Shown here: positions 14,768 to 64,000 of the stretch, piece after piece
Numbering within the stretch: position 1 is the first letter of the stretch
Layout of the letters: every line of letters begins with the position of its first letter
NCBI GenBank assembly: GCA_030698625.1
Contig: JAUYMS010000034.1
Location: forward strand, 2,835 to 66,834
Source: Candidatus Omnitrophota bacterium
Lineage (GTDB): Bacteria > Omnitrophota > Omnitrophia > Omnitrophales > Aquincolibacteriaceae
Direction: 5' to 3'
Length of the DNA stretch: 64,000 nucleotides
Translations under genes and position numbers: made by a program
The notes under the pieces: generated by a model
What the model saw: only the letters and a program-made list of their open reading frames with translations
What the model was told of the DNA's origin: nothing
Database searches by the model: none

Positions 14768-15018
14768 TAGTGAATCTCCTAGTAAATTGAATATTTGTCG
14801 GTTACTAAAATGACGCTTATAACACAGCAACTCCTATGCCAGAAGCACCTACCCCATGAAGTTCAAAAAATTTTGCTTTAACGCATTTAACAGTCGTCTG
14901 TTAGGAGGTTATCCACAGACACACATACCCGATATGTCACAGACACACCGGGACATGCCTTGATATAGCGTCTATGGATGTGAACAATGTGAGGAATTCT
15001 CGATATAGAGACGGAAAA

Positions 15019-24037: not shown

Positions 24038-24072
24038 ATCCCACAGTTTAACGCCAAAATACCTCTTTATCT

Positions 24073-26919: not shown

Positions 26920-27029
26920 CCAGCTAGCTCCCTTGTGAGTGAATGATTTCGTGGCATGCTGTCTGCAGGATACCAAAAAAATGGGCTGAGCGCTACAGCG
27001 AAACGGCGCGAACGGGATGTTCGCGTCAG

Positions 27030-28507: not shown

Positions 28508-28525
28508 GTTGGTCCGTGGTCAGCC

Positions 28526-29813: not shown

Positions 29814-32800
29814 TTAGGCTGCGGCAGCGACTTCGATGTCGCGGAGAATATCCTTGCTAAGTTTGGCTGCAAACGCATCAATGTCGGTAAGAATTCCGCC
29901 GAAGCCGCCCTCGCTTTTGGACTTCCCGGTGGAGAAGAAGTAGTACTTATCGACTTGCTCCACGCCGATCATCGCAACGGCCAGGGCAATTTCGATATCG
30001 CGCCGCGCCTTGCGGTAGAGACGACGCCCGAGGCTGCTATCGGGGTTGACCCCTCCGGGCACACCCTTCACGAGCAGACCCTTCCAACGCTTCTCGACGA
30101 CACCTAAGGCTACCTGAGCGAAAAGGGCACTGCCCACATCGATATCAGGCGATACAAGGGTCGTGGAATTGCCCGCCTCCGCCGACGGTAAAGCGGAGTA
30201 GCCTGCCAGTTGCGCCGCTGTAACCGCGACGCGCACGGCATCGCCATAGAAGGCCGCCGCCTCCGTCCATATGGCGCCCTGGAACTCAGCGCCGGTGAGG
30301 AAGACATCGAAGTTCTCGTCGGCATTCACAACCTGGGTAACAGGCGCGTTGATGAGCATTTTCTGCAGAGGCGTAAGGCCGCCGACTTCAGCTTGAACCC
30401 CTAGAATCGCAAGCAGTATTCCCTCAAAATCATCCGCCGCCACGCCTTTCTTAATCTCATCAAGCGTGAGGCCCGTAGCCATCCGGAGCAAGAACTCAAC
30501 CTTCAGTTTAAGACCGGCATAACGCTCAGCTTGCGCCACCGACAGGTCTTCGGAGCGCAGTTCGGAGCGCAGAATTCCCTCGAGATCACTCAACGTCTGA
30601 GTGTACGCAAAGATTTCATGCAGGACATCGTAGACTTTAGTGCCTTGAGGCAGTTGACCACTCAGCTGGGCATAGATGGAGTCGATCCTCTCGGTAATAT
30701 GATAGTGTTCAAACTCGTGATTGGCCCACAGACGCAGGTCGCGAACTGCATCGTCTTCCGGCACACTCAGGAGCTTGCGCGCATTCAAGCCCATGATGGA
30801 TTGCATCCGGTCTTCCAGCTGCTTCTTCTGGAAGAAGGCAACCGCGTCGGCATTCAGTCCCGTAAATTCTTCCAGGGAGATACGGACGCCGTTAGTCCCC
30901 TGCACCAGATCCCTCAGTTCGCTATGATCCGGGAAGGTGCGGTCGAAGATTCGCTGCAAGGCTTCCACCTGCTCGACTTCCAGCTTCTTGCGCAGGTCAC
31001 GGCTCAGCGCCTGTTCGATATTGGTCGATGTATCTTCTATATAACGCAGTTCCGAGCGCTGGCTAAGCTCATTGACACGCGAGAGCAGGCGGCCGGCCTC
31101 GATTAGGACACCGACGTGTTTGAGGTCCTTAGCGTACTTGGGGTCACTTTGCACGGCACGCAACCTCTCGCGGACTTCCTTGAGATCCTTCAACGCAGCG
31201 GCCCTCTGAAAGTCACTAATCTCGTCACCTGAAAGAATCTCATCGATACCGTCCAGACGTTTCGCAAGGCCTTCAAAGAAACGGTCGAGACGTACGTCTG
31301 TGAGCGTCTTCTTACCCGAAAGCAAATTCGTGATTGTGAGATTCAGGCCTTTAGCAATCGCCAGGAACTCGTCCCGGTCTGTCGCGAATTTCGCAACCCT
31401 TCTGTCTTCAGCCACGGCCTCTATTACCGGCGTAAGGGATTTAGCGTCTTCGATAAGAAGGGCCAATTCGGCCTGAATATCGCCCAGTCGGCCGACCGTG
31501 ATCCTCTCACTTGCAAAGATCTCGTCATAATAATGACCGAGCAGTTCCTTAACCACGCGGAAGGTCAGGTTCGCAGCCGCCTCTTGGTCGCGCTTCGCTT
31601 GCGGCAGGCTTTCTGCGATAATACCCGCACGGTTCATGATGGCCTTGAGGTTGGTAATGCGTTCACGCAAGGCATCCGCCGAAAGACTACGAAGCTCCAA
31701 GTCTGTCCGCTCGAACAGCTCCTTGAATTTCCCGACCTCCACATTCAGCTCGCGAAGCTTATCGAGCGTCAACTTCTCTTCTTCGACGATCAGCGCCAGC
31801 ACATCGCGATGGGCCTGGAGGGCGCGCTCAATCGGCGCGGCGAAGTCCGCGTATTCCTTGTCCTGTTCGTTGGTCTCAGCCGTCGGGACATAACGGCTCT
31901 GGACATCACGCACCGACGCAAGATACTCATCCGTGCGTGCGAGAGCCTCAGCCGGGTCAAAATCCTCGGCCGGTGCTTTCCCTTTGCGGCCGTAAATGCT
32001 GTCACCCAGCTGCCCGGTGTCGATGTGCAATTGACGCAGGATACCGGCATCGAGACCCCTTTGCCTGTAAGCCAACGCACTCTCCGGGGTTTCGGTTGCC
32101 GCAAGAGTGTCTTTCAGAAAAGCCTGAGCATTCTGCAGTTTTGTTTGGTCAGCCGGGCTGAGCAGTTCCCTATTTTCCTCGATCAGTGCGCGGTCAACTT
32201 GCTGCTTAAAATTATTCAGCTCTTCGCGGAACACGGCGAGTTCCTCAGGCGTTTCGAAAGAGCGGAAATTGCCTTCGCTGTCATAACTCTCTTTTTGCAA
32301 GTCTTCAAAAGCCTTATTGAGATTGGCCGCCTCCGCTGTGGCCGCAGCCTTGCGCTTCTCCAGGTCGTAGTAAACGCGGTAGTCCGCGGGCGAGTCGAGC
32401 TGCGTCGCGAGGTTCGTGGCCTTTGACTGTGCCTGTTTGATGCCGGCTGTCAGTTTTTTGCGTTCCGCATCGGCTATGGCCGTAGGAACCTCACCCGATA
32501 ATTTATCGAGTTCCGTATTGAGACCGAGAAGCTGCGCCAAAAGTATCGGCAATTCATCATCCTGAACGGGTTCGGAGGCAAGTAATTTACTCTTGAGTTT
32601 TTCCAGTTCGGAGCCGAGCCCGGCAACACGGTCGCTGATCCGCTTTTTGGTCCGTTCGGCGTCGAGCGTTTCTTCGCTCTTGAGCGTCGCCAGAAGTCCA
32701 TCGATCGTCTTAGCGAGAGCCACGGCCTTTTTGTTGCCTTCCTCGCCGAGAACGTCTTTGTATTCAGCAGCAATCCTATCGCGAGTTGCCTTCAGGGCCT

Positions 32801-35800
32801 CCACAGAGCGCTTCAGCGTTGTATAGGCCTCCGTATCAATAGACTCCTCACCGGTCAACTGCGCGGCGAGCTTGTCGATTTTACTCTGAATACTGTTCAG
32901 TGCCGTCCGGCCGCGTTCACTCTTCGGGACAAAGTCGATCACGGCGAAGTCGCTCGATTCCGTAAGGGCCGCCGGTAATTTCAATCCCGACTTTTTGAGA
33001 CCGACGACCAGGAACTTGCGGCCATCGCTCTTGCGTTGGATGACATCAAAGGCAAAATCAGCGTCTGTGCCGGTCAGGAGATCGAGGACGTCTTCGGTAT
33101 CCGAGAGCTCGATAATTTGCAAGCTGCCGTCACCGACGATCACGCCTTTTTTGCGGGCGTTCTTCTTAACCATGGCTTCGGCCTCGTTAATTTTCTTTTC
33201 AGCCAGATCGAGGTCTTTGGTTCCGAGTCTCTCGACAAGCGCCTTATGTTCTTCCTCGAGGAATGCCTGCCGATCATCCGGTGCGACACTCTGCGCACGT
33301 TTCTGAATATCCTTCGGCACCCGGCCCTGCTCAAAGCTGCGCAGGTCATTCAGGGTTTTACGCTTTACGTCGAGCTCTTTCTTCGCTTCCTTATATTCGC
33401 TGTCAAACTCACGTGTGGCTGTCAGCAACTCGCTCAAAGAGACGGCTTTGTCCGCACCGAAGCCCGCCAGGAATTTCCGGCGCACTTTGTCATTTTCAAA
33501 TGACCCTTCTATGAGAGAGTCGAACACAATCTGCCCGATCCCTTCCGCCGTGAGTTTGCTATCCACACGCAGCTCCGAACGCACCGTACCGGGCAAGAAT
33601 TCGGCCAGGAGAGAAGGATCGACGCCGCCGTCGCGCAGGCGGTCCACAAGTGTCCTCAGGAGACGCGCGCGCTCGTCGCGCTTGCCGTTACTGTTCAAGT
33701 TGAAGTCAACAGGAACTGCGTTGATCTGCTCGATCTCGGCCTGAATCGCTTTCTTCTGCGCCTTGCGTGTACGGTTGCGCAGACGGAAGCCCGTCACACT
33801 AAAGCCGGCGATCTTATTGTCAAGCCTCTCAAAACTCTTTTTGACATTGCTCGCCGTGGCGTCGTCGACGATCCTGCCCTGGGTTATGTTGCGCACAATA
33901 GCATTGAGCCATTCGCCCTGTGTAGAACGATGCGTCAGTGTCGATGCTTCATCGGTAGAATGCTCCCGCCCTCCGTCGCGTGCCGCATCGCCGCCGCCGT
34001 CACCGAAGTTAAAGGAAATGATGTCCGGATTGTGTGTGCGCACGTGATAGAAGTCACCGTACTCGTCAGTCACAACACGCTCCGAATAACCTTCTCCCAC
34101 TTTTTCCACGCCGCGGAAAACATGGGCCTGGTCGACACCGAGCTTATTGCCTTCCTCATTGACCAATTTGCCGAGTCCGGCAAATTCCGTCTTGTCAATC
34201 GTCTCACCTTTAGCATCATCGGGATGAAAGATTTCGGTGTGTATTCCGGGGTCCTTATCGCCGAAAAAGTCTTTGCCGCCCTTCTGCTCACGGCTGCCGC
34301 CTTTACGGAAGAAGCCCTTATGGCCCGCTTGTGAGTCCGCGGTAACGTAAACGACCTGGCGCTTCTCATCACGGAAAAATTCCGGATCTGCAATCTTGGA
34401 ACCGAGCCCAATTTCTTCACCCACGGTAAAGACCAGACGGAACTCCCCGCGCTCCTCACCGGCAACAGTATCGAAGGCATCGAGGGCCAGCCCGACACCT
34501 GAGCGGTTATCGGCACCAAGTGCCGTTGTCCCGTCGGTGCGAACGACTCCGTCCTTGCCGAGGATTGTCGTCAGCGGACCTTCGCGGATTTCCGGCCGGA
34601 CATCCATATGGCCGCCAACCACCGTAACGGCATCCCTTTCATGACCCTCGGTGGCTTTAAAGGTGATATATAGGATACCGTTGGCATCGACCTTAACTTC
34701 ATAATCTTGCAGACGGTCCGCACGGCGGCGGACTTTGGCGGCATCTTCGGCCTTACCTTCGCCCTCCAGCCGGACAGCCTCAGCTTCAAGACGGGTCGTC
34801 TCACTAATGATCGTATCAAGGACCATGTCCTGGATCGCAATCGAGACTTCCGGCTCGTGAAGTTGATACTGGCGCCTGACCTCATCGCTGGCTCCCGCAG
34901 GCGGCGTTGCCCGCGGCGTGCGCCCGATACTCAAAAGATGATGGTATCGCTCCAGGCTGCGACGCTCACGATCGCGGTCAAACGTTTTACCCGGATGACG
35001 CTTCTTGAAGTCTTCTTCCACCTTGTCGATTGCCGTTTCCAGATTCGCGCCGAAATCGCGGCTGCTGCGTTCGGCATTACGGCGGGCCAGCAACGCGGAG
35101 CGCGATTCGTCATTCAGTTCGGCAACAAATTCACTGCCCGGCCGCGTCGGATCGAAACCTCGCAGGATCGTCTCGAGGTCCTGACGGCTATTCTCATAAG
35201 TCTCGTCCTGAACCGTGTACATGAAGCTGAACACGTTTTCGAGCAGCATGCGGATGCCCTCCGGCAGCGCGCGGCGGTCAAACTCATCATCGATGTCGAG
35301 GTCGAGCAAGGACACGAGTTTCTTGCGAATGGCGTCGTATTTCTTGCGCAGCTTGTCGACCGACTTCAGTTGACCGGGATACTTATCGTCAGTCAGTGAA
35401 TAGAAGATGTCCTCATCCTCATAGACATCATCAATAAGATGCGGCAGCTCCCGTATCGCCTGATCCTCGAGCGTGCCGAGACTGCTCTTTACCGCGCGCA
35501 CGGTATCGCCGCTTAACATACCCAGGAGGCCGTCAATCAAGTTATCCAGCGTGTCGGATTTCTGAACGGCCGCGGTGAAACGGCGGAAGAACTCATCGCG
35601 CGCGGCATCATCCAGGCCCGCACGGGTCTGCAGCGTGAACAGCAGGTCGGCGATGGTCTCGAGCTTGCCGAAGAGCGCCTGGACTTCAGGCTTTTTCGGA
35701 TCCAGTTTGAACTGGTTCACGTAGTTACGAAGACCGTCGATGATCGTACGGCGATAATGGCGCGCGAGTTCCTTTTCGTCGAGGTTGCCGTCGCTGCGGT

Positions 35801-38800
35801 AGATCGTGTCGTTATCCGACGGGTTGTTGCGCCAGCCGTTGGTTTCGTGCACAAACGAATGGATCTCGGAAAGCATGCCCTGCTGGCCCAGGATAAGCGG
35901 ATCACGCATCACCGGGAACTGCGACAGCACGAGCAACTCATCCAGATCGGCAAACTGCTTTTGGCGATTCTCCCACAGGTACTGCGAACGTGCATGCCCC
36001 AGTTCGTGGGCAAGGTCGCGCAGGTTGAGACCTTCCGGGAATTTGGTCTTGTCTTTCTTCTCGGGAACGATCACCAGCGTACCAAAACCGGCACGGTGAC
36101 CGAACCTAATCGCGGCACCGTCGCTGCTGTCGCCCTTACCGTTACGCTTCATGAATTCTTTAAACTTGTCCTCCTTGAGTTTCAGAACAAGGATACCGTC
36201 CCGATCGATCAGTTCCGCGCCTTCAAGATCGGACTCAAGATGCTGATAGTCAAAATGGATATCTTCGGTCGGGTCCTGGCGTGTAAGCAGGAAGTCGCGC
36301 GTTTCTTTCGCCGAGGTGTCGTAGGAACGGCTCACGAGATCCTTATTGGTCTGATCCTGGAAGGCCTTGCGGACTTCCAAGAGCGTCTCACGGGCCTTGG
36401 CCGCATCAGGCTCGCTCACTATAATCAGCTTCTGCAGCGCAAAATAGACAAGCGCGCGGTAAGTATCCTCGGCCAGGAAGCGGCGGCGTTCGAGTTCGAG
36501 ACGCCGTCTCTCAGCCCCGGATGTCCCCTCGGGAATACCCAGCTCGCTGACCTTCTTTTTAATGCCATCGAGTCCGTCAGGGTGTGTCGCCGACAGCAGC
36601 CCTGCCTGCTCCGCGGTCGCCTTCGCCTGCTCGATCTGGTAGCGGTGAGCCGGCGGCACGAGGTGCTTGATACGGTCATAAACCCGGTCGTGCTTAGTCC
36701 TGTCGTAGTCGGGAGCATCGCTATGCACAAGGGCTAGGACATCACCGCGGATGCGGTTGAAGGAATCAGCCACGCGGTTCGGATGATCACCGGTCCGGCG
36801 GCGGCGGCGATGCTCTTCGAACTTGGTCTCATAGTCGACGGCATTATCTTCGACGGTATACCGCTCGCGGTCGGCCAGAGCAAAGCCCGTATACGTAATA
36901 TCACGGTTGCGCTCAAAGTTAGAACGGCTGATCTCGAGGGCCGAGCCGACGAGCCTGCCCGAGCGGCTTTGCGCAAGGAGGTTATTAAAGTAATGGAAAG
37001 TCGGATCGCTGATCGAAGGCTCACCCGTCTTAGCGCGCTGTTCGTCACTCTTCTTTTTCTTTTCATCCAGGACACGCTTGGCCTCCTCGACCTGCCCCTT
37101 CTGCAGGGCCTCCTCAAACTCAAAGATCCAGCGGTAAGCGACGTTAGTGCTGAAGTATTCTTCGTAGGCTTCCCAAGCGTTTGTGTCGCCGCTCAAGAAG
37201 CGCGTAAACGGATCCTGGTCGAGTGGTTCATTAACAATGCGCTCCTTGAAAGCGGCCTTATCACGGTACACATATTCCCCGCGGGTCATGGCCAGCGCAC
37301 GGTAGAACTGCACGGTGGCGTCCTGCTTCTCACGTGACTGGAACTTCAGGAAGTTACTCGCGACATATTCCGCGTAGTAGTCGCGGAACATCTTGAACGG
37401 ATCATCGGAAGCCACCGTCCGGCCGTGCACCGTGCCTTCGTCGATGACACGGCTGATGATACGGCCCATGCGCTCCACCCGCTCTGCTTTGACGTAATTC
37501 CCCGAGGCGCGAAGCTGGCGTGCCCGCAGGCTGAAATTCGATATATTTTTACTGCGCTGGAACGGATTGAGATAGGAATCGTGAACGCCCTCGGAAAAGT
37601 CATTGAGTTCGTACTCGATGACTTCGTGGAGAAGATGCTGACTCACATAACCGATCAAGCCTTTGTCGGGCTGGCTGACCAGACCGCTATAGCGGCCTTC
37701 GAGAAGGTCGTCCAGGACCCAGTCTGCGAAGAAGATCTTGCCGCCGCGGACAAAAGCCGGGGTGTCGGCCGCGGGCTCGATCTCAATCGGCAGGTCGCGG
37801 ATATGATCGATGAGAACGCGGAGAATGTCTTTGAATTCGTCCGGCGCAGCGGGATTCCCGAGAATGGCATCGGCATCTCTGATGATCTCACTCTTGAAGT
37901 GCTCAAGGTCAGCTTTCGTGTACGCGATGCCGTGACGCTTGCGGAATTCGATGATGCGCTTACCGTAGCCGGGGAATGCGGCGGCGACCGCATCCAGTTT
38001 GGCGAGGACCTCGTTTTTGAGCCTCTCCTGCTCGGCCGGAATGCGATCTTCCTTGTCCTTGTGGCGCCGCATCTTCTGAATGCGTTCCTCGCCGTCCTCC
38101 TGCAGCTTCGAGGCCTCATGGAATAGAATGGCCGCCAGACCCTCGCGCAAGCGTGCGGCTTCGTCGGCGCGTAAAGCGTCCTGCTCCACAATAGCGAGCC
38201 GCGCTTCATAGAGCCGCTTCAGGTTTTCAAGCGAGAGCGGCGTGCCGGTCCCGAAGAGGTCTTCGCCCAAAAGGTGCTGTGAAATCAGGTTGAGTTTGTT
38301 AGTCCAGGCCGTACGCTCGCCGCGCGCAATGGCAAAGGCGTCGTCGATCGAAATGTCATTAGCCAGAATACCGTCATGAACACCGGCAAACAGGCCCTGC
38401 AAGAGAGGATCAAGTGCAAGGCCCGCAAAACCGGCGTCACTGGCGTGATCAAGATTCACGCCAAATTTGTTAAGAATGCTCTTAATGTCGCGCAGCGACG
38501 GCCGGCCCCGGCCTTCCTGCTCGCGTTCGGCAATCACGCCGCGGATCGCGGCAACAGCGCGGCCGATCTTGATCACCGCCGCGACTGAGGCTTTTTCATC
38601 GAGGCGGAGATGGTCAAAGATCGCCTCGCCCATCCCCATACTCCCGTCGATGTCGCTGACCAGCGTTTCGTCATCCCTGAAACCACTCTCCCCGGCCTTC
38701 ACCTTGTCCGCCAGGTTCTTGCGCTCCTGAGTGATCTTCTCCGACAGCCCCTCGAAGAGTTTGTCGATCTTATGCGCAAGTCCGACCGGATCACGCCCAC

Positions 38801-41800
38801 CGTCCATCAGGGCCGCGATCTGGATTTCTCCCTTTATCTTCTCCAAGGCTGCGTTGTAAGCGCGGGCATCACGCCAGAAATCTTCTTCATTAAAGACTTC
38901 GCCAAAGCCTACGGAGTTTCGGCGTTCCTCGAGCGCTTCGGGACTGCTGCTCTCGCGGAATCTTTTGACTTCTTTATTAAAGCGCTTAAATGCGGTACCG
39001 CCGGAATCGATCGCAAGACCCGCCTCGAACTCTGCGGCCTCGTCCAGGTGCCAGCCGCCTTGAATGAGGTTTAGGGCATCCGCCACTTCGAGATTATGCT
39101 TCCGGGTAAGTTCGAGGAATTCCTTGTGACCGAGAGTGGTGTGGATCGGGTTCTTGGACAGGAGTTTCTCACGGACATCCTTCTTATTGAGATCGGTATT
39201 CTTGTCGGCCAAGCCGATTTGCGTAAGGCGATCCTTGTAAGCAGTGAGAACCTCCATCTGAAAGGCCACGAGAGGATCGGCCGCCTTCTTCAGATCTTCA
39301 AAAATCTCCTCACCGAAGAATTTGACGGACTGCTTCTGCGTCGCATAAGTCTTCTTGAAATCCGCGATACAGGCCGGCGCACAGCTCAGATCCTTCTCCC
39401 ATTCTTCGAGCTGATGCTCAAGCTGCTTCTTTTGCTGCTCTATCTGGACAAGTTTGTCCTTGTCCTTCTCATTTTCTTTGAGCTTGTCGAGATAATCAAA
39501 GTTCTGCTGGAAGTTTGAGTACTTCTGGTAATCCCCGAGCACCGACGGCCCGTACTTTTTCTTGCGGACGAGGGCCTGGATGGAATCTTTGGCCTTCTCC
39601 TGATATCGCTCCTGAACGCTCTTCTGCAACGACTGGTCTTTCTTCACGCGGTTCAGGGCTTCGCGGTCCCTCACGAGAGCGAAGTATTTGTCGATCGTTT
39701 CTTTGGACGGATTGTTTTCGGGCGCCAGGGCGATACGGGCGCGTGTCCACAAGCTGGTCGCTTCATCGTCGGCAAGGGCCGCAATACGCGAGCGCAGCCA
39801 CTTCGCTTCGGCATGGCGGTCCACCAAACCGAGCAAGATCCCCTTGAAGAAATAGCTGAGGTAGAACTTAGCACCCACAAACGGGGGCTTCGCATTCCCT
39901 TCCGCATCAAAAAGCGTACTCCGCGTATAGTAACCGCTCAATGCCTTGTAAAGGCCGACAAGAGAGCCGACGCCGACCAACGGGTACCAGACATAGCTGC
40001 TGCCGAGCACTCCCACAACCGTCTTACCAAGAGCAAATGTCGCCGCCGTACCGAGAGCACCTTTAACCGCCGCGAATGCCGTTACGAGCCAGCCGATGAG
40101 CGGGAACGAGAATCCCAATCCGAGCCCCGTCGCAATGGCCGGCAGGCCGAAAACCAAAAGTGCGCCGATGCCGGCTAGCGCCAGCCAGAAGAGCGGGCTG
40201 CGGGCAAAACCAAGCAGGTATGTCTCGATGTTCCGCACGGCACGGAATTGTGAGATCAGCAGAAGCGCCGCCAAAACCGCTGCAACAATCATCGAAACGC
40301 TAACGAGCACCGCGCCTCCGAGGAAGAATCCCCCGGCCAAGAGTCCTGCCGCTAGGCCGATCTCGAGGGTACGGCGGAGCGGCGTCACATGGGTGATCTT
40401 GCCTTCCTTATCGATTCTGTCTAAGCGCTCCTTCGTCTTCTCGACGCGTGACGTAAAGAAGAACTTAATCTTCTCGACTGCGGCGGAGAAGAAGGCCTTG
40501 ATGCGCGTACCGAAGAAGAGGACGATGCCGGTAATGGCAAGCGCGCCCACCACAATAACGGTCGGCACGACGATCATGGCGAGCAGTGATCCGCCGGCAA
40601 TCACAGCCGCGCCGATGTTAAATAAGATGAATCCGAGCAGACCGAGACCGAGGCCCACCTTGCCGATTTTCAGAAGCGTCTCATTGCGTTTCGCACGGCG
40701 CAGTTCCCGGACCTGTTCTCGGGCGTCATTGCGCAGCTCGACAAGGCGTGCGGCGTCAAGCACGCCGCGCTCCGTGCCCTCCGTAACGATAACCGCGAGG
40801 GCAGCACGCTCCTGACGCAGCGACTGTTCGAAGAGTTCTTCGGTCTTGATCTGGTCGTCGGTGCGGTTCTGTCCATACCAGGCCGTCCATTCATCCGGCA
40901 GTATGGAATCGAGGACCTTTTCGGCACCCCGCCGCAATAGCATGCGTAAAATAAAGAAGAAGCGTGCAACCTTCGTGTCGGGGACTCTAATCCGCTCCGG
41001 CAGAATACTCGTCCAGGCGCCGAAGAAATCACCATAGGACTCGGCGCGAATGCCTAACGCCCCGCGGTAGATCACGCGCCGCTCGGAACGCAAAGCGAGG
41101 TTGGTCTTGCGGAGGTTTGCGCGGACACTCGCAGGCACGTCGGTAAAGGCGGCATGTGAAACTTCTTGGTTTAGAGCCGCCAGCGCGTCGCGGGTTGCGC
41201 CCACATCGCCGCTGCTTGCTGCCGCGCGCACGCGCGCAATCCCGTTAATAACCCCGGCCAGACGTGTACGCTGTGCTGCCGGCAGTCGGTCGAGCGCGGC
41301 CTTCGACTGCCCGAGGGCCGTATCGATGCCGCTTTCAGCCGCATCCGTAAGCGTCGCCGCCGGCCGCAGGCTCTCCTTCTGGCGGCGCGAGAGACGTGAG
41401 GTATTGATGCCCGACAGGATATCGCCGGCACCCTGAGTGAGGTCGATGCCTTCGATGTCTTCCGCATTAATGTAGGAATCTTCAATCAAGTAACCGCTGC
41501 CGATGTCGGCAAGGACCGTCGAACCATTGATCGTGGTATCGTCACCGATGGTCACGTCGTCGCCGATGATCGTGGTGCGCTGTTTGAACTTGTCCTTATC
41601 GTCCTTCTTCTTATCGGGATTGATCTCACGATTGCGCAGACGCACATTGCGGCCGATTTGCACGCGACGGCCGACCACCACACCTTCGCCGACAACCGAG
41701 TTCTTACCGATAACGGTCGGACGCTCACGGTCACCGTCCTTGATGGTGGCGCCCCGGCGTACCACTGAGTTCGCTTCGAGGCGGACATTGCGGCCGATCT

Positions 41801-44800
41801 TGGCCTGAGCCTGAATCACCACACCGCTTGAAATATAGACACTTTCATCAATTTCGGCGAACGTGTCGACATGCACAAACGCAAAACCGCCGTCATCAGC
41901 TTTAACCCACCGCAGTTTGCCGCGTTCCACGTCGATCTGTGTCTTGAGACTCTTGAGCTCGGCCGACACCTCGATGGCCGCGGCCGTATGGCCCTGCTCG
42001 AGTTGCTGCAGCATCGGGTCGGCGGCCACCATCTGTTCATAAGTTTGCCCGTAGACCGCCCGCACAACGAGATCGCCGTCATTGCCGGCCTCGGTCCGCT
42101 CGCGCAGGCCATAGAAGTTGATCCCGCCCGAGGTAATGCGGCCGACGCTCAGGGAGTCAACCCGGTTAAGCAGAGCCTCGGGATTCTGAATGAGAGCCCG
42201 GCGCTCGTCTTCATTGAGTTCGAGCCGGATACGCGGCTTTCCGGGCTGCCTGATGACAACTGTGATCCTGCGGTCAGAGCAGTCACCGGCGCCGCCGCAC
42301 ACCGCCGAGCGATCAAGTTCGCGCAATGCGAGGATGGCGTTGGAAAGCGCCCGGCTGGTGGACTCGCTCGAAGTATTTTCCGTATCAACCGTAACCGTCG
42401 CACCGGCATCGGTACGTTCCACAATCACAACGTCCTCGGCCGTATGGACAGACGTTGCTGCACCGGCTTCGGTTTCAGTGGATTCAACAGCAGGAGCGGC
42501 GCGTTCGGCTCGTTCATCCTCAGCAATACGGATCACGATAGGTTCATACTCTCGCACCGACTCAACCGTATTATTGTATTGAACATTCCGAATCACTTTG
42601 AGTTCACCTGCAGGCGTCTTTAGCTGCGCCTGGCGGTTGCCTTCGAGCACGTTGCCGAGACCGCCTTTTACGACCGTCTGCGTCGCCACGATCTTGGTGG
42701 CCCGGTTTCCGACGAGTGCCGCGGCATTAAAGCCGATCGCGGCCAGAATCGCCGGAATAAGCGGCAGCCCCAGCAGAACCGCTGCGCCTGCTCCGGCGCC
42801 TATCACGGCCAGCCCAAGCAGCAGTACAACGGCAATAGCGCCGCGCTTGCCGATACGGTTCTGCAATGCGCTGAATCCCAGATACCCGGCAGTCACGCCG
42901 ACGAGAAGGCCGAGGACGGTACCGGCGAGTATGACCTGCGCGAAGAGAATTCCGGCCACAATTAAGCTGCCGAACGCCGCCGCCAATCCTCCGGTAAGGG
43001 CTAGTGTGCGCAGGAAGCTGAAGCCTGCGGCACCGGCCTCCTGAATCCGGGCACGGAAACTCCCGAGACCCACGAGGTCCATAATCCGTCCGATCGTATT
43101 GCGTATAAGCCAGTTGAGACCCAAGCGGCTGCTCAGCGTCGGCAGTACCGACAAGACGAGTCCCGCGCCGAAAACAATACCGGCAACAAGTAAGACACCG
43201 AATGGCGCAAGGAAGAAGCTGACGGCGGCCGCTACAAGCGCGCCGGCAACGGCAATACCGCCGATCACACCTGTGCGTCCGCGGAAGCGATTGAGCGCGC
43301 GGCCGACCTTGCTCAAGTCTTTCGGCGCCGTCGCATCCGCTACGTCGGCGGCCAAACCGGGGTGAGCTTTCTTGAGCTGGTCCAAGGCATCCGCGACGGT
43401 ACGCTCGCGGACTGCACCCAACGCCAGCGCGGCCTGTAGGCCCTGCACGCCAAGGTAAGAACCTTCGCGGCCGAGGCTGCGAAACTCGACGGCGCAACTC
43501 GAACAGCTGTTCAACACCGATCGCGCGGCAGTCTCTGCTTCGGAACCGATAATACTCTTAAGTGAAACATTAAGCGGCACTCCCGATTCCCGGACCGCGA
43601 TCAACACCTGGGCCGCACGGCGGGCTTTTAACGCATGGTCGGTAAGCGTGTCCTGGTCGGCGATAAACTGATTCAGGATATCCGCCAAGAGTGTCTGCTT
43701 CGCCTCTTCGCTGAGTGTTTTGTCGTTGCTGATCTCTTCACGGATGCGGCTGACAAATTCATTCTCGAGGCGGCTCTCGGCATTGTGAATCCCCCGGACC
43801 TCAAGATTACGCCGCTTCTGTTCCGACTGTTCCTCCAGCTTCAGAGAATGTTCGTAGGCGCCGTTGATCAACGCGCGGCCGAGGTTGTCGATATACTCGC
43901 GTTCGGAAACAGCTTCTTCAGCCAGCAGGCGGAGGCGGTAGGCTTCGGCACGGCGCGCCGCTACATCGTGGTCTCTGCCCTCTTCGGTAAATAGCGGTGT
44001 CCCGGTCGTCTTAGTGCGTTCGCCGCGTATACGGTTCAGTTTATCGATACGTTGCGCGTTCGCATAGCGCCTCGCATCGTCGACGCGCGCGGCGTCGACA
44101 AGTCGGTAACCGAAAGCTTTGAGTTTCGCTTCAACTTCACTGGCATTCTCGGCGGTGACTTCCGTCTCAAGCGAACCCTCGCGGCCGATGGCAAACTGCC
44201 AACCGAGCGCGCGCAGCTTGCCGTTCAACCACGACAGAGCCGCGGCCTGACCGCTGTTTTGGGCACGGGTTCTATAGTCGCTGAAAAGCTGCGTCACTGC
44301 ACTCGTGACTGCGCGATGACTGAAATAGGAATCCTCCGCTGACCCAAGACCAGCCACGACCTTCTTGTACTCCTGTTGGATCTGCGCAGGCGTTCCGCGA
44401 AACGCTTCGAGCCTCTTCGCTTCCTGCAGATAGCCGAGCCCGCGCAAGAAGCGGCCCAACCGTCTCTGTAAGAGTTGCGCGTTGCCCTGAACTTTTCGGC
44501 CGAGACGCAAACGCTCGACGCGGCTCTTGAAAAAGCCCTTAATTTCACGATCGCCGTTGGTCTGCCGGTCGCCTGCGATGACATACTCATTCAACGCCTG
44601 CTTCTCGCTCGTGAGTGTCACGCTCATGCGGCTATAGTTCAACTTGACGGTATAACGTTCATTACCGATCTCAAGCGTCTTGCCGTCAGTCAACTGATAA
44701 TTAACGCCGCCGACCTTGAGACCTGTAATCTGACCGTCCTTGTATGTAAAGTCAAAATTTTGTCCGTTCTCCTGAACAACCTGACTACCGCTCGCATCAG

Positions 44801-47800
44801 CATCACTGCCGCTCTTATCAGCAGGGACGCTGAATTGTACACGGGTATTTCCGTTTTGATACTGCTGGTATGCCGCCTCACCCTTGGATGCCAGATACTC
44901 GGTAGTCGAGACCGCGCCGTTTTTCTGCTCACCTTCAAATTGTGAGAACTTCTGTGACTCCTTAGCGCGGGCATTAAACTCGACCTTGCCGGGCAGGTGG
45001 TCGATCAGAATGCGGTCAGCCGTGGCTTCGGTCGTATTCCTGCGCGCCTGGCTGAGAAGCGCTTCGAGCTTGGCCCGCTTTACGTCGAGCTTGCGTTCAA
45101 GCCCCGTCGTGTCGCGTCCTTTAGCGCGAGCGGCCTCGACCTTTTGCTGCAAGGCGAAGTACTGAGCCAATGTTTTCTTAAAGAGCGCAAAGCTAGCGGC
45201 ATCGGCTTTCGTTCCCGGCAGGTTTTCAAAGCCGAGCGCCACAATCTCATTTACGTCCCACTCATTGACATAAATCTCACCGACGCGGCCGGGCGCTTCA
45301 TTGCGGCCGGAACGCGCCACTGCCTGCTCGAAGTCAAAGAGGTTGCGGCTTGCGCCCACGGCATAACCCAGTTCCCCGTAGGCGTAGCTGACACTAAACT
45401 TGTCGAAGAATTCTGCGACATGCGTTCGATACGCCGCTTCGATCTCTTGCGGCGTCGCCGAACTCTCAAGGCCGAGCTTCTCAAGAAGGCTCGTACGCGC
45501 ATCACCGCTTGTCGCTTGCGCTTTGGCTACCGCGGCATTCCCAGTTTCGGCACTAAACTTATCAAGAAGCTTCATCACATCGTCACGCGTCAACTCATCC
45601 GTGACCGGCAGTCCGACGCTGCTGCGCAAACCGTTGATAAAGTCGAGAACCTTCTGCCGTTCCGCCTCGGAATAACCGGCGAGTACTTCACTCAGCTTGA
45701 CTGTTGCCGTCTTATCGTTCAGGTTCTCACGCAGCGCATCCTGCAGAAGCAAGCGCTGCAAATGATGGAGCTTCTCCAATTGCTCGGTCTGCTCATTGGC
45801 GCTGTAACCTGCCTGACGCAGCAGCTCGCGCAGGCTTCGTTCCACGCTCTTGTCCCTGTCTCCGCTCTTGACGCTTTGTGAAAAGGAAGCGAAAGGCGGC
45901 ACGAAGTTCGTACCACGGCTGACATTATTCGAGGCAAAAACGACACCGCGCAGGAGACCGCCGTCTTTACCTTCCTTGCGGCCATAGTCACTTTGAGATC
46001 CGTCGAGAAGGTAGATGCGGCCGGCACTGAGAGACAGGTCCTCGAGACCGTGCAGGGCCGTAAGTAAATCGAAATCCGTCCGCACACGCGAACGCAGGTT
46101 GGAGAAAAAGCGGCGCACGGCATTATTGAGTGCCGGCTTCGCGGTCGCATCACCCCACTTGCTGCTCAACTCTTGAAGCAGGTTCTCGAGTTCGGCCAGC
46201 ATGGCCGTGATTTCAGCGTCCGTGAGACCCAGTTTCGTCTGGTTTGCCCTGAGCGTGGCCTCCGCCTGCGCCTTCACATTGGCAATGTAACTCTTTACAT
46301 ATTTGCGATAGGCCTGCTGGGCTTGTTCCGGCGACTTAAAGAACAGACGCGAGATCGTGCGGTAGTTCTTCTGTGCATCGGCCACCAGGTCGGCGATAAC
46401 CCGGTCCACTTCTGCCGCCGTCGTAAATTTGGTCTCATTGATAAATCGCGCACGCCTAATATGGGTATCGAAGTTTAGATAGTCCTCCGGGCTCGCGATG
46501 ATCTTGAACGCGGCCGCTAGCTTCAGGAAGGCCTTATCCTCCGTCTGGATGAAGGCCTGATCACGACTGCCGGAAGGTATGGATTTCACGGATGCCAGGA
46601 CCGTACCGCTCGATCCACTGAGGTCCATGCTACCATCCTCGAAACGCCGCGTCTTCATCTCAAAAACCACAAGACTGTCATTCTCACCGCTGGTCTTGCT
46701 TTCCGCTTCGACCTTAAGGACACCGCCGTTGTCAAAAACCAGGGACTGGAAAGCGGCTTCCAAAATAGTGCCGCCGAAATTGCTTTCGCGCTGCGTCGAG
46801 ACACCTTCGTTGCTCATCACGCGCACTTCATAGACGGGCGTACCGCTCTCGTCAATCTTGTCGCCTTTGGCATCTTCAGCCACTTTGAACCCGAAATCCT
46901 TGCCCGCACGGCGAGCCAGTAGGATCTCGAGACTGCGGCGCAGGAGCATCTCGAAAGCCTTGTCGGGATTCTGCAGCTGCTTGCGTTCCTCTTCACTGAG
47001 AAGCAAGTTGGAGTTGTCGAGTCCGAGCTGGGCAAAGAAATCTTGAACGTTACCCCCTCGGCTTTCGACGCGTTGCACAAATTTCTTGTAGAGTTCCTTC
47101 GACTTCTTGCTGAACTCGTCGGTCGTGCGCAGGCTTAACCGGCCGTCAGTCCCCTCGGAATCTTCAAGGACAAAAAGCGTGCCCGGTTCTGTACGGCTCA
47201 AGAGCCGACGTGCGGTGCGGGCCCACTTCTCATGGGTGCGCTCAGTCGCACTTTCGGTGCGGATGCCGAGGTCCTGCTCCACGAGTTCCTGAGCAAAGCC
47301 GAGAAGAGTGCCGAAGTTTTCGACATTCTTCTTCGCAAGACTGCGGCCCCCTTCCGCATTGATATAACGCATCAGGATCATAAAGATGGCGTCAATTTCG
47401 TCCACGCTCAGGATGTATGAGTCGTCCGAGAGGTTCTTGTCGTTAGGCGCACTGCTCTGGTCTTCTAAATACGCAAACTGATAGTCGGAAATCGATATGT
47501 ACAGGACGCGCGGCTTTTGTTCCTTGTTTGAAAATGCCTGTTTGAAGGTATCCCTGCCCATCTTGTTCTTCTTGAGGCCGTAGGTTTCAATACCGAATGC
47601 CGCATAAACGGCCTGGTTTTCATTCAAGAGGTCGTCGCTTACGGCCTGTTCGGTATGCAGGAGATGAGCCACGGTAGGCCCGACAAAGGCCTTCAGAATA
47701 TTTCGGAAGAGCAGTGTGCCGGTCTTACCCTGCGCGGTCGGGATACCGCTAAGGATGCCCTGAATCAAGGCCGCGCCTTCTACCAGCTGAATGCCGCGAA

Positions 47801-50800
47801 CCGAATAGTCGAATGCCGCATTGAAGTGGCGCTGGGCAATGGTCCCGGCCACGAGGAACTTGAAGACGATATCGTTCGGAATTTCCCGGCCCTGAATTTC
47901 TTTCGCTTTGTGATACTCATTACCGAGGGCTTTCAGTTGGGCCGCGAGGAGTTGTTTCAGAGAGTCGGAGGCATTAAAGAGTTCGTGAACCGCATTGAGG
48001 GTATCAACCGCCGCCTGTTCTTGGCTGCTGAGGAAGACAGATCCCTTGTCGTCATACAGCCCGCGCTTGCCCTGTTCGACGAGCTCGCGGAGCAGTGTGC
48101 GAAGCGCTGCCTCTTTCTCCGCCTCTGAACGTGCCGTATCGAAAAGGATATCCCGCACGCCCGCAAGCCTGTTGCGCAGAGGCTCCGGCAAGGCATCGAA
48201 ATCCGCGGCCGACAACTTTCCATTTTTAAGGGCCTTCAAGAGAAGCTTCACTTTGATGTCAAACTCTGCCAGTTGTTCGAGATAGATCGCCTTCTTCGCG
48301 CGCGCAGAAGTCTCTGCGTCATCACCCTTCAGTTGGAGCAGGCGCTCCCTCTCAGTAAAGGAGGCGATATCGTCCTTGTTTTCTTCAATACGAAGGTACT
48401 TGCTATCGAAGGCATCGGCCTCTTTGGCGGCTTCGACCCCTTCGACCAAGTCAGTCAGTTCAATGGACCGCGGGTTGTCCGGCGTGAGCTTGGCGTTCTC
48501 ACCGACCAGCCCTTCCAGGCTTCGGATGCGGCGTGAGAGTCGATCATTCTGGATCTGTAGTTCACGCTGGCGCAGAGGATTACGCAATTCATCTCCGGCC
48601 TTCAATTGCGGCCCGATGACGTGCTCACGAAATTCCACGAAGTGGTCATGCAAGGCTTTGCCGGCTTTCTGGATTTCGCCCTCGGCTTCTTTGGCCTTCT
48701 TGAGCAGTTCTTTGGCTTCTTCCCTCAGGGTATTAAGAGTCGCGCGAAGCCTAACCTTGCTCGCGCGTGAACCCCGCGCGGCAAGGAGACTCTCGGTCTC
48801 TTTGACCTGCTCATCTACTGCAATGAGCTGTGCCCGGATGCGCGCGAGAACCCCATTAGCGGCGTCAAACTCCGACTCGAGGACATCGGCTCTGCGGTCC
48901 AGAGTCAGAACAATTTCATCCGTGCTAAGGACATTGCCGTCGGCATCGAATTCCGCCCTGAAGGCAATGCCCGTGCGGGCGTCTTCGACATAAACCACGA
49001 CCTTGCCGTCGAGGTAGAAGAGATCCGTCCCCGGCTTGAGCTCCCGGCCAAAACCGTTGACGCGGTGCCCGGCAATGTGACCCGTGTTGTCGAGAAAGGC
49101 CTTCTGGGCATTTTCGCCGTAGTTGCTGTAGCCGATTTCCTGCAGGCCGTCGGCGTCACGCCCGGCAAATGTGCGGAAACCAACCTCGTCCCCGTTTTCA
49201 TTAAAGAACCACACCGCATCCTGACCATTCAAACGGCCTTTGGCGATAAAACCGCCTGAGGCCGTCACACGCACGTCGCGCTCATCCACCTCGGCGCCGC
49301 GGTTCACGGTCAGATCCGCATGAAGTCTTTGACGCCGTTCCTCGAGCTCTTTTGCTTTACTCTCAGACCTTTTGGTCGTGCCTCGCGTCGCAGGATCTCT
49401 GCGATTCAGGAAGCGGTTCGTATCCCGGAGCAGCCGGTAACTGCCTGAAAGTGTCACGAGGAAGCCAAAACCGTCGAGCTTGGCGAGGGCCGCGAGGAGT
49501 TTCGCGCGCTGGTCCGGCGTGAGTGTCTTAAAGCGTTCGACATCGCCGTTGATAACGATGGCTTCCTGATCGGCAGCGGCAACTCCGGCGGCCGTCAGCT
49601 CCTGATGATGCAGCTCGTGGCCGGTGAAAAAGCCGAGCAGAAGCGACAACTCACCCGCGCTAAACTGACCGGAGAAAAGGCTCGCATCCAAACGGATCGT
49701 CCCGGTTGCAAATTCGAAGTCTGCAGGATGCGGGGCATTCTCAAGTATTTCAATCCTCAGATGGTTCGGAACCGCATGGCCAAGCGCGGCAAGCCTGGCG
49801 ATCGTCCGGTTCTGGAGGAGAATTGCCGTCACGATAAGGCGGCGGCGCTTCATCCCCTCGGCGTCGGTACCGATCCCGAGTGACACAAAAACGTCTTCAA
49901 GTTCCGCGAGCAGTTGACGCCGTGCGCTCAACACGTCCGTGACGCGGCCAAGTGCCCTGCGGTCAAGAACGATCGTGCCGGTAGCCGGGTCGATTGTCAC
50001 AAGACTTGAGCCCGAAACGGTAGGCGTTACACCCTCAAGAACATTGGTGCCTGCACCGCGGGTATCGGCGGTCAGAACCGGGAACGCGGCGGCGGCAGCG
50101 GTACTGCTCTCATCTCCCTCACGCAAAGCAGCACCTGCGTGGGCCGCGACATTTTCGGCTTCGCGGCGTTCGAGCTCGCTCAATTCGCGGCCTTCGGCCA
50201 GGCTCGCGTAAAGCGATTCCTGCAATGCCGCCGTGCGGACGGCAAGCTCGCTGAAGTGGTCTTGCAGGGTCCGGTCGCCGGCAGTCACCGCAACATACTC
50301 GGAACGGAACTCCTGTAACACGCCTTCGCCGGCAAGCGCGAGGTGAGCATTACTCTCACCCGTAGTGTCGAAACTGAGCGTAAGCGCATCATATTTGGCC
50401 TGGAACTGATTACGCGCAGTTTCGGTATTCCGCACTGCCGCTTCAAGGGCGGTACGGGCCGCCTGCACCTGGGCATAAGTGGCACCTTCGCCCCGGAGGT
50501 AGCTGCTATAGATCCCGCGGAACTTCGCGGCTGCTTCGCGCTGCGAGTCCGCAGCCGCTTCGTATTGATCGCGCAGAGCACGCAACACCGCAAGCTCCGA
50601 GGCACCGCGGCGGCTGAGGTCTTCGGCCGCGTGAGCATCGTCCTCGGTGAGCCTTATGGCCTCGTCGGTGACGGGCGCGGCATCAAGATCGATACCGGTA
50701 CGGCGGGCCTCGAGTCTGGCGCGGCCTTCCGAGAGGTTGTCTCTAGCTGCCTGCACCAAGGCGAGAAGCCCGGCAAGCTCGGCGTCAGTGAGATTGCCTC

Positions 50801-53800
50801 CCTTTAATAAGATTTCCAGATAGCTTCTAGCCTCGTCGAGCGACTCCCCCGCAAGCCTCAGCTGGCGCTCGGCGCCCTCAATCGTGGCCCCTTCAGCCTC
50901 CGCCCGAGCGGCCGCGTTTGTCGCGACTCGGGCATTCACTTCAATGCCCAGTCGATACGCTTGTGCCAGCAGCGCTTGTGCTTCCTGCAGTGTAATTTTT
51001 TCGTCCTTTAAGGCACTGCGAATGCCGGCGATAAGCGCCCTGAGCTTACCCTGAGCCCGAATGCCCTTCGTAAGATCAAGATCCGCCCCTCTAGCGAGTT
51101 CCTCAGCCTGAGCCTGCGTCGCGTTCAGTCCATCAAGGACCGTCGTATCACGCGTGCCGGCTTTGTTGATCTGCTCATTAATCGCATTGATCACTGCGTC
51201 AAGTTTGGTATTGAACTCCTGATTGGCTTCAGATAATGCCTTTGCCCTTGTTCCCTTAAGCAAGCCTCTGAGTGTCTTTTTCAACTCGGTGATGTCTGTT
51301 ACTTTGTGAAGGGCGTCGAGTTTCGAAACAACAGCACGCGCCGCATCGAGATCTCCGCGCAGGACCAGGGCTTCTGCCAGCTCGGCGGCCGTTCCGACCT
51401 GCTCTGCCGTATAGGTATCTGCCGTACGCGACGCGGCCCAAACTCCAAACTCCGCATCGGATAGAACCGCCGCTTCTGACGCCGACAATTTTTGAATCCT
51501 CTCAGTGTCCGGCCCCCGCGCTTCTTTCTCAGCGGTTTCACGGCGGTTGCGCGCCACATCCAGGACCTGCTCGATCGCCGCGTGCACGGCTTCGTCGCGC
51601 GGCGCGCCCTTAGCGGCACGGTTAGCAAAGTTCACGGCGCAGGAGCTGCAGGTCGCATCAAGGGCTTCAAGGTCTGCGGCAAAATCAGCGTCGATCTCAA
51701 TTCCCGAACGCGCTACGTTTTCAAAGGTATGCCCCACACGGTCGGCCCGTTCATCGGCAAGTTCCTGCTTCTGCGCCTCACTGAGCGAAGACCCCTTGAT
51801 GCCTTCGATCATGGCATCATGCGCCTGCTTCTGCTGCTGCAATGCGGTCCGAAGCGCATCCCGATCACCCGCCCGAATCGCGTCTTCCACCGCCAGCTCG
51901 GCCCTAATGGCCGCAAGTTCATGACTTGTTTCGCCGCAGCCACCGCCGCCGCATAGTTCCTGGAACTTCGAGACGTTGTTCCGGACAGCGTTGATGTCCA
52001 GCGTATCCACACGGCTCAAAGCGGCGGCGGCCTTCGCCCGGAACTGATTAGCCTGGTTCGCCGTCACACCCAGTTCAGCCTGCAATGTCTGCGTCTCGGC
52101 ATAGAGCCCGAGGATTTGAGCGCGCAGCTGCTGCATCTGACGGTAGGTCTGCGCCGTCCGCGGGCGAGCCTGAAGAGCGGCTAGTTGGTCGATCTTGGCA
52201 AGTAACTCATCAGCGGCTTCGACGAGCCGCTGCGCTTTGGCGCGGGCCGCCGCATCCCTCTTGAACGCCTCGTCGATGTCATTCAGGAAGTCTGCGCCGT
52301 CAACGAAAAGATCGGCGGCCGTCACGGGAATGGCGGCTCTGGCGGCCGCGGCCGCTGTCGCAAGTTCTACGCGAAGCGCGCCGAGTTCTGCGAGCACAGT
52401 CGCATGCAGAGAAACTGCCTCAGCGGCCGGCGCATAATTCAATACTTCTCCAGCATGCCGGTAAGCGGCGCGCAGTTCTCGAGCGGCTTGCGTCAGTTCG
52501 CCCTTAACGAGATGTTCACGGGCCTTGGCGGCACGCGCCCGAGCCTTGGCCGCATGTATTTCAGCTGCGGTGCTTGGTTCGGAGGCCTCAGCCGCCGCTT
52601 CTTCATCAGCCGAAATCAATCGATTGAGACGGTCCGCGAGATCCTGACGTGCCGACCGGATTCCATTGCGTATCGCATCGGGTACTGAAAAGAGCATGAC
52701 CAGAAGACGCAGGGCAATCCACTCAACCAGGATGACGGCACCACCGGCAACGAGGCCGGCCGTGATGGCCAGGGCGATCGTAAGCATTACAGCAATGGCC
52801 ATCGAACCGCCGACAAGGGGCACCAACACCGGCAAGAGCAGTGCAAACATAACGATACCGGCCGCAATCGCCAAAACTGACGCGATGTTAAAGTACTGCG
52901 TACCCAACGTACCGAGGACCCATCGTAAGCCGTCGACGATCCGCGAAGACAGGGTCTTGCCGGTCCTCTCAGCCGGCGCAATCGTCTTAGCCAACCATTC
53001 GATCAAGCCCTTCTTGCCGTTTTCGAATGCCTGATTCAGAGCGCGAGCCACTGCCGCAATCCTTGTAGACACTGCAATGACCGGCGGTGCCAACGCGCGC
53101 GTTATGAGCACCGCAACAATAATCGCCGTCAGTACGGCCGCGGCAACAACACCGACCGTAAGACCGAATACCAGGGCGAGTGCAAGCGCAATACCCGCAG
53201 TAACCGCCAACTGATCGGAGACACGGCCTGTCAAAAAGCGGTACATCCCTTCCGGTATCACCTCAGAGATGGCCCAGCCGGCAAGGCCAAGCATGCCTAG
53301 GAGCAGAGCCACACCCAGGAAACTCAGCACTATGCCGGTAAGCGTGTAAGCCGCCCCGGAGATTATTAATCCCGCCAATGCCACAAGCGCCGGAACTCCC
53401 AACACCAGCGCCGTCACCACGGCGGCGGCCGCACCCATCACAAGAAGCATGCGTGTCGGCGAAATACTGGCAACGCGATTCCGGATTGCCGTACCCAAAG
53501 AACTCGCGAAGCCCCTCAGTAAGGTCCTCAGGTTGATCGGGATACGGAGAACGGTTTCTTCGGGTCTGGTCTCCCCGAATGCCGGTATCGTGATGGTTTG
53601 AGTGAAGAGAAATAAATCACTGACATACAAGACTGCCGCAACCAGAGCGCTCACGATGACAGCCGCGACAAGCCCCGGAAGAATACCGCCGAGAACAAGA
53701 GTGAAGCTGGTGATCACGGCTGCCGCAACAGCGGCAGTAACAAGGGCAATCGCGATGCGGCGCCCGTAATTGACAGCAATATCAACCGCCTTGTCGAAGG

Positions 53801-63965: not shown

Positions 63966-64000
63966 AGCCGGGGTGTCATTGGCGAAAAGGTTCGTAATGA

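Follow-up and report, generated by a model that had tools for sequence, protein, structure and literature searches.

In canonical enzymes of peptidase family M20, a lid/dimerisation domain closes the active site around very short substrates, whereas families M28 and M42 of the MH clan are active without a lid of the M20 type, and in M42 enzymes the first His and the bridging Asp of the metal site are separated by a PDZ-like domain. For the giant proteins of the Omnitrophota, published accounts name peptidases as a class and single out C39 and S8 (West-Roberts et al., 2023, 10.1101/2023.11.21.568195; Nielsen and Lui, 2026, 10.64898/2026.06.07.730766); the term “M20” has no occurrence in the main text of either paper, and one supplementary file of the latter holds no M20, M42 or M28 accession. 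Here we describe an M20-like domain in a giant protein encoded by a 64,000-nucleotide stretch of a Candidatus Omnitrophota contig (JAUYMS010000034.1; this whole stretch is “the window” below). We show by sequence comparison that the domain is homologous to subfamily M20B, carries the complete set of catalytic residues, is conserved in other giants and has lost the lid; from this we infer its activity, the identity of its metals, its exopeptidase chemistry and its position on the same side of the membrane as the giant’s SecA-like ATPase. The reading that we consider probable is that of a highly diverged, lid-less M20B catalytic domain in a giant membrane protein, working as a two-metal, Glu-assisted exopeptidase or amidohydrolase.

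The giant open reading frame (ORF; called at 29814..63965 on the minus strand) encodes at least 11,383 amino acids (aa), with its N-terminus outside the window. The frame and the parts of the domain on which the argument turns, the domain itself being delimited by a hidden Markov model (HMM), lie as follows:

29814..64000, minus strand: giant ORF, host of the M20-like domain; the frame runs without a break from base 64000 to the stop at 29814
33840..34829, minus strand: lid-less M20B (PepT-like) catalytic domain, aa 9713-10042; envelope of the giant-type HMM
34599..34616, minus strand: GGHMDV, aa 9784-9789, with ligand H9786 (34608-34610) and the HxD Asp, D9788; aligns with invariant H76/D78 of canonical M20B
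34494..34517, minus strand: GADNRSGV, aa 9817-9824, with bridging ligand D9819, within the M20B/C-type signature TDGTTALGADNRSG; aligns with “DGTTILGADDKAG” of 3rza, 1fno and 3gb0
34401..34427, minus strand: TVGEEIGLG, aa 9847-9855, with putative general base E9850 and ligand E9851; aligns with invariant E140/E141 of canonical M20B
34329..34346, minus strand: VTADSQ, with fourth ligand D9877 (34335-34337) and then an invariant Gln peculiar to the giant type; hhalign puts D9877 on the canonical D164 column
34041..34328, minus strand: giant-specific insert of ~100 aa (aa 9880-9975) at the position of the canonical lid plus part of the catalytic domain; no alignment to the canonical lid
33948..33965, minus strand: EHSTDE, with terminal ligand H10002 (33960-33962) and E10006 of the M20 “H-x-x-x-E”, after the strand IISFNF; aligns with “IHTPDE” H345/E349 of canonical M20B

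Taken alone, the domain matches the NCBIfam models TIGR01883 “peptidase T-like” (E = 4.7e-10) and PepT (E = 6.3e-10), and phmmer against PDB retrieves the tripeptidase 3rza (E = 4e-7) and PepT 1fno (E = 4.4e-5). When four giant-type copies are compared with 40 canonical M20B proteins, hhalign returns 99.5% probability and E = 3.3e-23 over the stretch that holds the H, D, EE and D positions, and a profile of five giant-type copies meets PDB entry 3gb0 (Peptidase T, 373 aa) at E = 1.4e-15 in a single collinear alignment that takes in both the N-terminal and the C-terminal helix, with “viNfgdGgdgeHktgEs” placed on “tvNLAvGyeeiHTtNEk.” The C-terminal piece alone falls into the identical register on canonical M20B (P = 4.4e-4). 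Among other structures, the five-copy profile scores 6e-13 with 3rza, 5.6e-7 and 1.9e-4 with the M42 entries 2cf4 and 1vhe, and 1.1e-6 with DapE (7uoi). A HMMER scan of 1.84 billion representatives gave 121 matches at E<=1e-3, and those inspected are M20-type enzymes or giant-protein copies. A preliminary description of this DNA had proposed an MH-clan two-metal hydrolase domain with its ligands in the right order, and the PepT-like, hhalign and 3gb0 scores bear this out; the domain had also been located correctly (at 33880-34700), though the HMM envelope is slightly wider.

The Pfam scan that had been recommended as the check is less telling. PF05343 (M42) matches at E = 0.0016-0.0018, with 17.8-18 bits against a gathering score of 23.2, and spans only the Asp-to-Glu-Glu stretch (profile positions 129-172), while PF01546 (M20) matches at E = 0.012-0.12, with 12.7-16 bits against 24.6, collinearly from the His through Glu-Glu. 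As both matches are below threshold, standard annotation overlooks the M20-like domain. Judged from the alignments, the domain is M20B-derived (PepT-like) and not M42, because the 33-aa gap between first His and bridging Asp cannot hold the M42 PDZ-like domain and because M20B structures and profiles score best. Of the M42/M20-like affiliation first given to the domain, the M42 (TET/FrvX) part therefore has to be dropped, the PF05343 match being partial as well.

The three motifs from which the domain was first recognized (GGHMDV, GADNRSGV and TVGEEIGLG) stand in the places and order originally reported, all in the frame of the minus-strand giant ORF. The preliminary description gave no positions for two of the ligands, D9877 and the terminal H10002, which are placed here. 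All five ligands—H9786, D9819, E9851, D9877 and H10002—match invariant columns of 40-53 canonical M20B proteins and of 3gb0, and the two residues expected of a working site are both present, i.e., the general-base Glu just before the ligand Glu (E9850) and the HxD Asp two residues past the first His (D9788). Ligand spacing is H-33-D-31-EE-26-D, as compared with 31/33/23 in canonical PepT-like M20B, and the “TDGTTALGADNRSG” signature is of the PepT/PepD type.

Copies of the module in other giants were recovered by an exhaustive search of representatives (P0045, P0059 and P0013) and by a synteny-guided fetch (L011), and they are ~25-35% identical to the window domain. P0045 is a protein of 7,157 aa that has the module at ~6440-6780 and no Pfam match on record; P0059 is a fragment of 1,389 aa that takes up a whole 4.3-kb contig; P0013 is a 144-aa fragment covering the C-terminal half of the module; and L011 is a giant on the Omnitrophota contig JBAYGD010000001.1. 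Across the window, L011, P0059 and P0045, 31 of 246 aligned columns are invariant, and these include all eight catalytic positions (H, HxD Asp, bridging D, E, E, D, H and E; hypergeometric P ~3e-8, in alignments that anchor on the motifs). P0013 keeps each of the three catalytic positions that it covers. D9877 with its Gln (Q9879) and H10002 with E10006 are invariant in 5/5 giant-type sequences, and the invariants specific to the giant type are this Q9879 (in “DSQ”), “GDF” at aa 9970-9972, and N9986. Conservation of the ligands in homologues of the giant had been named beforehand as a point on which the domain assignment should stand or fall, and in the giant-type copies these residues are invariant.

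The L011 giant ends at contig position ~96,460, and counting 62,866 aa from that point leads to the end of the contig at 285,061; a protein of 62,866 aa with TSP3 repeats has been reported on this contig (10.64898/2026.06.07.730766), and the L011 giant is very probably that protein, with a probable length of at least 62,866 aa. On the P0045 contig (ERZ1426681, 63,962 bp), a 7,410-aa gene precedes P0045 with an overlap of 23 bases, and a frameshift or gene-calling error may have divided a single giant of >14,500 aa into these two genes.

A word-indexed protein search with the domain gave four weak canonical M20 matches and zero homologues from other giants, and when a profile built on the C-terminal half peculiar to the giants was used in the same type of search, the result was empty; a GTDB genome scan with the domain found zero relatives, and a metagenome scan with the L011 plus P0059 alignment found L011’s own contig only. 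Whole-domain profile searches were dominated by canonical tripeptidases of ~370 aa. HMMs of the modules that flank the M20-like domain in L011, P0059 and P0045 leave the window giant undetected at E<=1, and thus only the M20-like module is demonstrably shared.

A distinguishing trait of the domain, one that the preliminary description passed over, is the loss of its lid. The window domain has no Pfam match to the lid/dimerisation domain PF07687, and the alignment to 3gb0 shows the lid of that structure as a target-only insertion. From the fourth ligand Asp to the terminal His there are 125 aa, vs. 181 aa in canonical M20B including the PF07687 lid. As aligned, then, the canonical lid is lost and ~100 aa of giant-specific sequence is in its place, an insert (aa 9880-9975) that is common to the fragment P0013 and, in part, to P0045. 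An AlphaFold2 model built with a 56-sequence alignment reaches a predicted local distance difference test (pLDDT) of 60 and a predicted template modelling score (pTM) of 0.58, with the N-terminal half at pLDDT 62-85 and the C-terminal helix at 72-79; from the single sequence the pLDDT is 38. Foldseek of this model, itself derived from an M20-rich alignment, against PDB returns MH-clan structures only, in the order 3rza, PepD, PepT, DapE, CPG2 and then M42 (best E = 5e-7, template modelling score <=0.43).

By homology, the five ligands would hold two divalent metal ions (Zn or Co), with D9819 as the bridge; E9850 would serve as general base on the metal-bridged water, and the water so activated would attack an N-terminal peptide bond or another amide bond. 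A site without a lid would be open to larger substrates, as in the single-domain M28 aminopeptidases, or it may be capped by a new element.

Several observations weigh against the lid-less active enzyme. Curated thresholds are missed: PF01546 and PF05343 stay below their gathering scores, and TIGR01883 reaches 39 bits where its cut-off is 274. The central part of the domain, which holds D9877 and the insert, is mostly below pLDDT 50 in the AlphaFold2 model, and the fold match is not independent evidence, because the alignment behind the model is dominated by M20B sequences. The module was not found in the last 1,500-3,000 aa of the giants L003, L004, L009 and L027, which adjoin a transaldolase/PGI gene, even at E<=10 with filters off, and is therefore not a core part of these giants. 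Finally, DapE, an M20 enzyme, is inactive once its dimerisation domain is deleted (PMC4012986), so that activity cannot be taken for granted in an M20 domain without a lid.

The last of these points leads to an unlikely but serious contender, in which the module is a pseudo-enzyme or binding module that kept its metal site, lost hydrolase activity along with the lid, and now has a metal-dependent peptide-binding or structural role in the tail of the giant. The inactivity of lid-deleted DapE (PMC4012986) fits such a loss, as do the replacement of the lid by unrelated sequence of low model confidence and the dispensability of the module in related giants. However, the general-base Glu and the HxD Asp serve chemistry beyond metal binding, and they are invariant across copies that share only ~25-35% identity. 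Moreover, MH-clan enzymes of families M28 and M42 work without an M20-type lid. We regard an active, lid-less M20B domain as the probable reading with these points taken together, and turn to the protein that carries it.

On the N-terminal side of the M20-like domain the giant has the following features, the helix clusters being those of a Kyte-Doolittle scan:

52821-55577, 42726-43199 and 40131-40676, minus strand: the three hydrophobic helix clusters of the giant
47379..48032, minus strand: divergent SecA_DEAD-like ATPase domain of the giant, ~aa 5312-5529; Pfam PF07517, E = 1.4e-11, 44.6 bits, which passes the gathering score
40131..40676, minus strand: final hydrophobic helix cluster, ~aa 7764-7945

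There are ~28 hydrophobic helices (about 19, 5 and 4 in the three clusters), the SecA_DEAD-like domain lies between clusters 1 and 2, and hexapeptide (LbH acyltransferase-like) repeats recognized by Pfam (~aa 7370-7490) lie between clusters 2 and 3. The scan predicts no membrane segments after aa 7945, and the M20-like domain therefore sits in a tail of ~3,400 aa that is free of transmembrane helices. In this tail it is the sole recognisable enzyme domain; PDB sequence searches with the flanking sequence on either side (1,765 aa upstream, 1,328 aa downstream) gave zero matches. If the SecA-like ATPase is cytoplasmic and each of the two later helix clusters makes an even number of membrane crossings, the tail would be cytoplasmic as well, a parity that a hydropathy scan cannot settle. 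With >10,000 aa, a SecA_DEAD domain, many transmembrane helices and Omnitrophota neighbours, the protein matches the published description of Omnitrophota giants.

The module might instead be a non-peptidase amidohydrolase (like DapE, ArgE, aminoacylase or carbamoylase) that deacylates a small molecule, a precursor of the cell wall or a cell-wall fragment. Family M20 includes many such enzymes, DapE structures are among the fold matches, the same giant carries a Hexapep acyltransferase-like repeat, and Omnitrophota giants have been linked to cell-wall polymer processing (10.1101/2023.11.21.568195). Yet by every sequence measure the nearest subfamily is PepT-like, PepT or PepD (M20B/C), complete with the “DGTT-LGAD[ND]” signature, and the score of DapE (1.1e-6 with 7uoi) is about nine orders of magnitude worse, so that we hold a deacylase of this kind to be improbable and keep to the M20B exopeptidase/amidohydrolase reading.

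The preliminary description had further given the C-terminal part of the giant a “multi-protease character.” Three HExxH motifs occur in the giant, vs. 0.12 expected from composition:

49605-49619, minus strand: HExxH at aa 4783; motif only
35994..36008, minus strand: HELGH, aa 9320-9324, 466 aa upstream of the ligand His; motif only
30705..30719, minus strand: HEFEH, aa 11083-11087, 300 aa before the C-terminus; terminal HExxH, its position conserved among giants

HELGH was the whole basis of the multi-protease claim, and its distance had been given accurately (~465 aa, found at 466). The region around it has no credible Pfam match and no PDB match. Its apparent counterparts in L011 and P0059, matched by context and position and not by alignment, are HHEVVGHDYENL and THEQEGHRYENL (HHEVVGH and THEQEGH), i.e., HExxxH, and the zincin helix spacing is therefore broken in these two giants, while P0045 (HEYKH), L003, L004 and L009 keep HExxH at this position. 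We do not accept HELGH as an established protease site. The region of the terminal motif also lacks a credible Pfam match, and a terminal HExxH lies 235-300 aa before the C-terminus in 7/7 giants (the window giant, L011, P0059, P0045, L003, L004 and L009), with the L003 tail aligning to aa 11060-11280 of the window giant. The terminal HExxH looks like part of a positionally conserved C-terminal module of the giants. We treat the multi-protease idea as a lead and not a result.

A more ambitious form of the hypothesis would join these elements, but we think it quite improbable. It holds that the module is an open-site aminopeptidase acting on the N-termini of long polypeptides, within a recurring C-terminal cassette (an upstream HExx(x)H motif, the M20-like module, and the terminal HExxH ~240-300 aa before the C-terminus) that trims or matures the giant or its cargo, perhaps through coupling in cis with the SecA-like ATPase. 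Physical association with SecA has been reported for the M20A enzyme PepV of S. aureus (PMC12004944); as a parallel to the SecA-like domain of the giant this may be noted as a curiosity, and a functional link has no support here.

For the narrower reading of a diverged M20B catalytic domain, two further alternatives carry little weight. A self-compartmentalising M42 aminopeptidase of the TET/FrvX type can point to the lower E-value of PF05343 relative to PF01546 when the window sequence is searched alone, and to M42 structures in the Foldseek list, but it is very improbable: the match is limited to the Asp-to-Glu-Glu stretch, the 33-aa gap is too short for the PDZ-like domain, M20B structures and profiles are at least eight orders of magnitude better, and a TET dodecamer is implausible for a domain inside a protein of >11,000 aa. 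Chance co-occurrence of short motifs, which a very long ORF and individually sub-threshold Pfam matches might suggest, is practically negligible given E-values of 4.7e-10 to 3.3e-23 in independent profile comparisons and a collinear alignment over the whole domain.

Downstream of the giant lie genes for a response regulator, a histidine kinase, a transaldolase/PGI fusion, a LysM amidase, RecN and PEP-CTERM proteins. The closest relatives of these neighbours are in Candidatus Omnitrophota metagenome-assembled genomes (MAGs), in the same order, with identities of 47-56% for transaldolase/PGI and 63-72% for the response regulator, and in L011 and the window alike the giant is followed by response regulator, histidine kinase and transaldolase/PGI, in this order. 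The block from response regulator through histidine kinase and transaldolase/PGI fusion to LysM amidase (window 21609-29149, minus strand) keeps its order in L001, L002, L003, L007, L011, L016 and L062, and RecN belongs to the conserved order wherever sequence covers it. Only in some Omnitrophota MAGs is a giant gene directly upstream of this block; at the locus in L007 and L062, the closest transaldolase/PGI relatives, an ORF of at least 1,500 aa was not seen. A phage or plasmid origin of the region was considered and rejected, as the genes around it are of the chromosomal housekeeping type and in synteny with Omnitrophota MAGs. Elsewhere in the window, two PEP-CTERM-tagged proteins (14000-14830 and 20541-21236, minus strand) are found near a CHASE2-SpoIIE phosphatase, a FecR-like protein and a TPR protein; positions 1-13300 (plus strand) hold ~ten ORFs of 120-350 aa (e.g., 1664-2722, 5524-6327 and 8296-9327) without any Pfam or PHROG match; and the window contains 0 tRNA genes.

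Set against known systems, the module is a diverged form of a well-known enzyme and not a new kind of enzyme or system. Its host resembles the Omnitrophota giants already described (West-Roberts et al., 2023, 10.1101/2023.11.21.568195; Nielsen and Lui, 2026, 10.64898/2026.06.07.730766) in its SecA_DEAD domain, its transmembrane helices and its mostly unannotatable sequence. Such giants are mostly unannotatable, and a recognisable enzyme domain in the last 3,400 residues of one of them offers a small, expressible piece with a testable activity. Published domain catalogues of the giants may overlook the module, since threshold-based Pfam annotation does so (as for P0045).

The closest relatives are the PepT-like M20B enzymes (TIGR01883; 3gb0 and 3rza), the best match in every search, which have in common with the window domain the order and near-identical spacing of H, HxD Asp, bridging D, EE and D, the “DGTT-LGAD[DN]” and “GEE-GL-G” signatures, and the terminal strand-His-x-x-x-Glu-helix. 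They differ in carrying the PF07687 lid, where the window domain has ~100 aa of unrelated sequence between ligands 4 and 5; where they have a “GG[ST]DA” region, the giant-type module has an invariant “GDF”; and they are cytosolic proteins of ~370 aa, whereas the window domain is embedded in a membrane protein of >11,000 aa. Peptidase T itself (PepT, M20B; 1fno, 1vix and 3ife) likewise has the metal-site motifs and the catalytic-domain fold in common with it, but has a longer His-to-Asp segment and a tripeptide-restricting lid, neither of which is found in the window domain. M42 TET/FrvX/deblocking aminopeptidases (2cf4/2wyr, 2gre and 1vhe) are alike in belonging to the MH clan, in their five-ligand two-metal site and in having no M20-type lid, yet they possess a PDZ-like domain and assemble into dodecamers, in contrast to the 33-aa spacing and much weaker scores seen here.

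Lid loss is the trait for which comparison is most informative. The stand-alone proteins P0140 (350 aa) and P0048 (377 aa) and the membrane-anchored P0031, P0050 and P0108 have, like the window domain, a lid-less M20B N-terminal half, but in them a short linker leads into the canonical second half (“G-GSDA ... G ... IHT..E”), whereas the middle of the giant type is longer and different. P0031, P0050 and P0108 form a separate family of 640-740 aa, in which a glycine-rich, transmembrane-like N-terminal region is fused to a lid-less but otherwise canonical M20B domain, and natural lid loss in M20B has therefore happened more than once. The engineered lid-less DapE structures (4h2k and 4op4) are, like the window domain, M20 catalytic domains without a dimerisation domain and are among the fold matches, but those truncations are artificial and inactive (PMC4012986), while the window module is natural, conserved in several giants and equipped with a replacement insert. 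A natural M20 catalytic domain that has no lid and yet strongly conserves all its catalytic residues bears on how M20 enzymes depend on their lid, the DapE truncations being dead.

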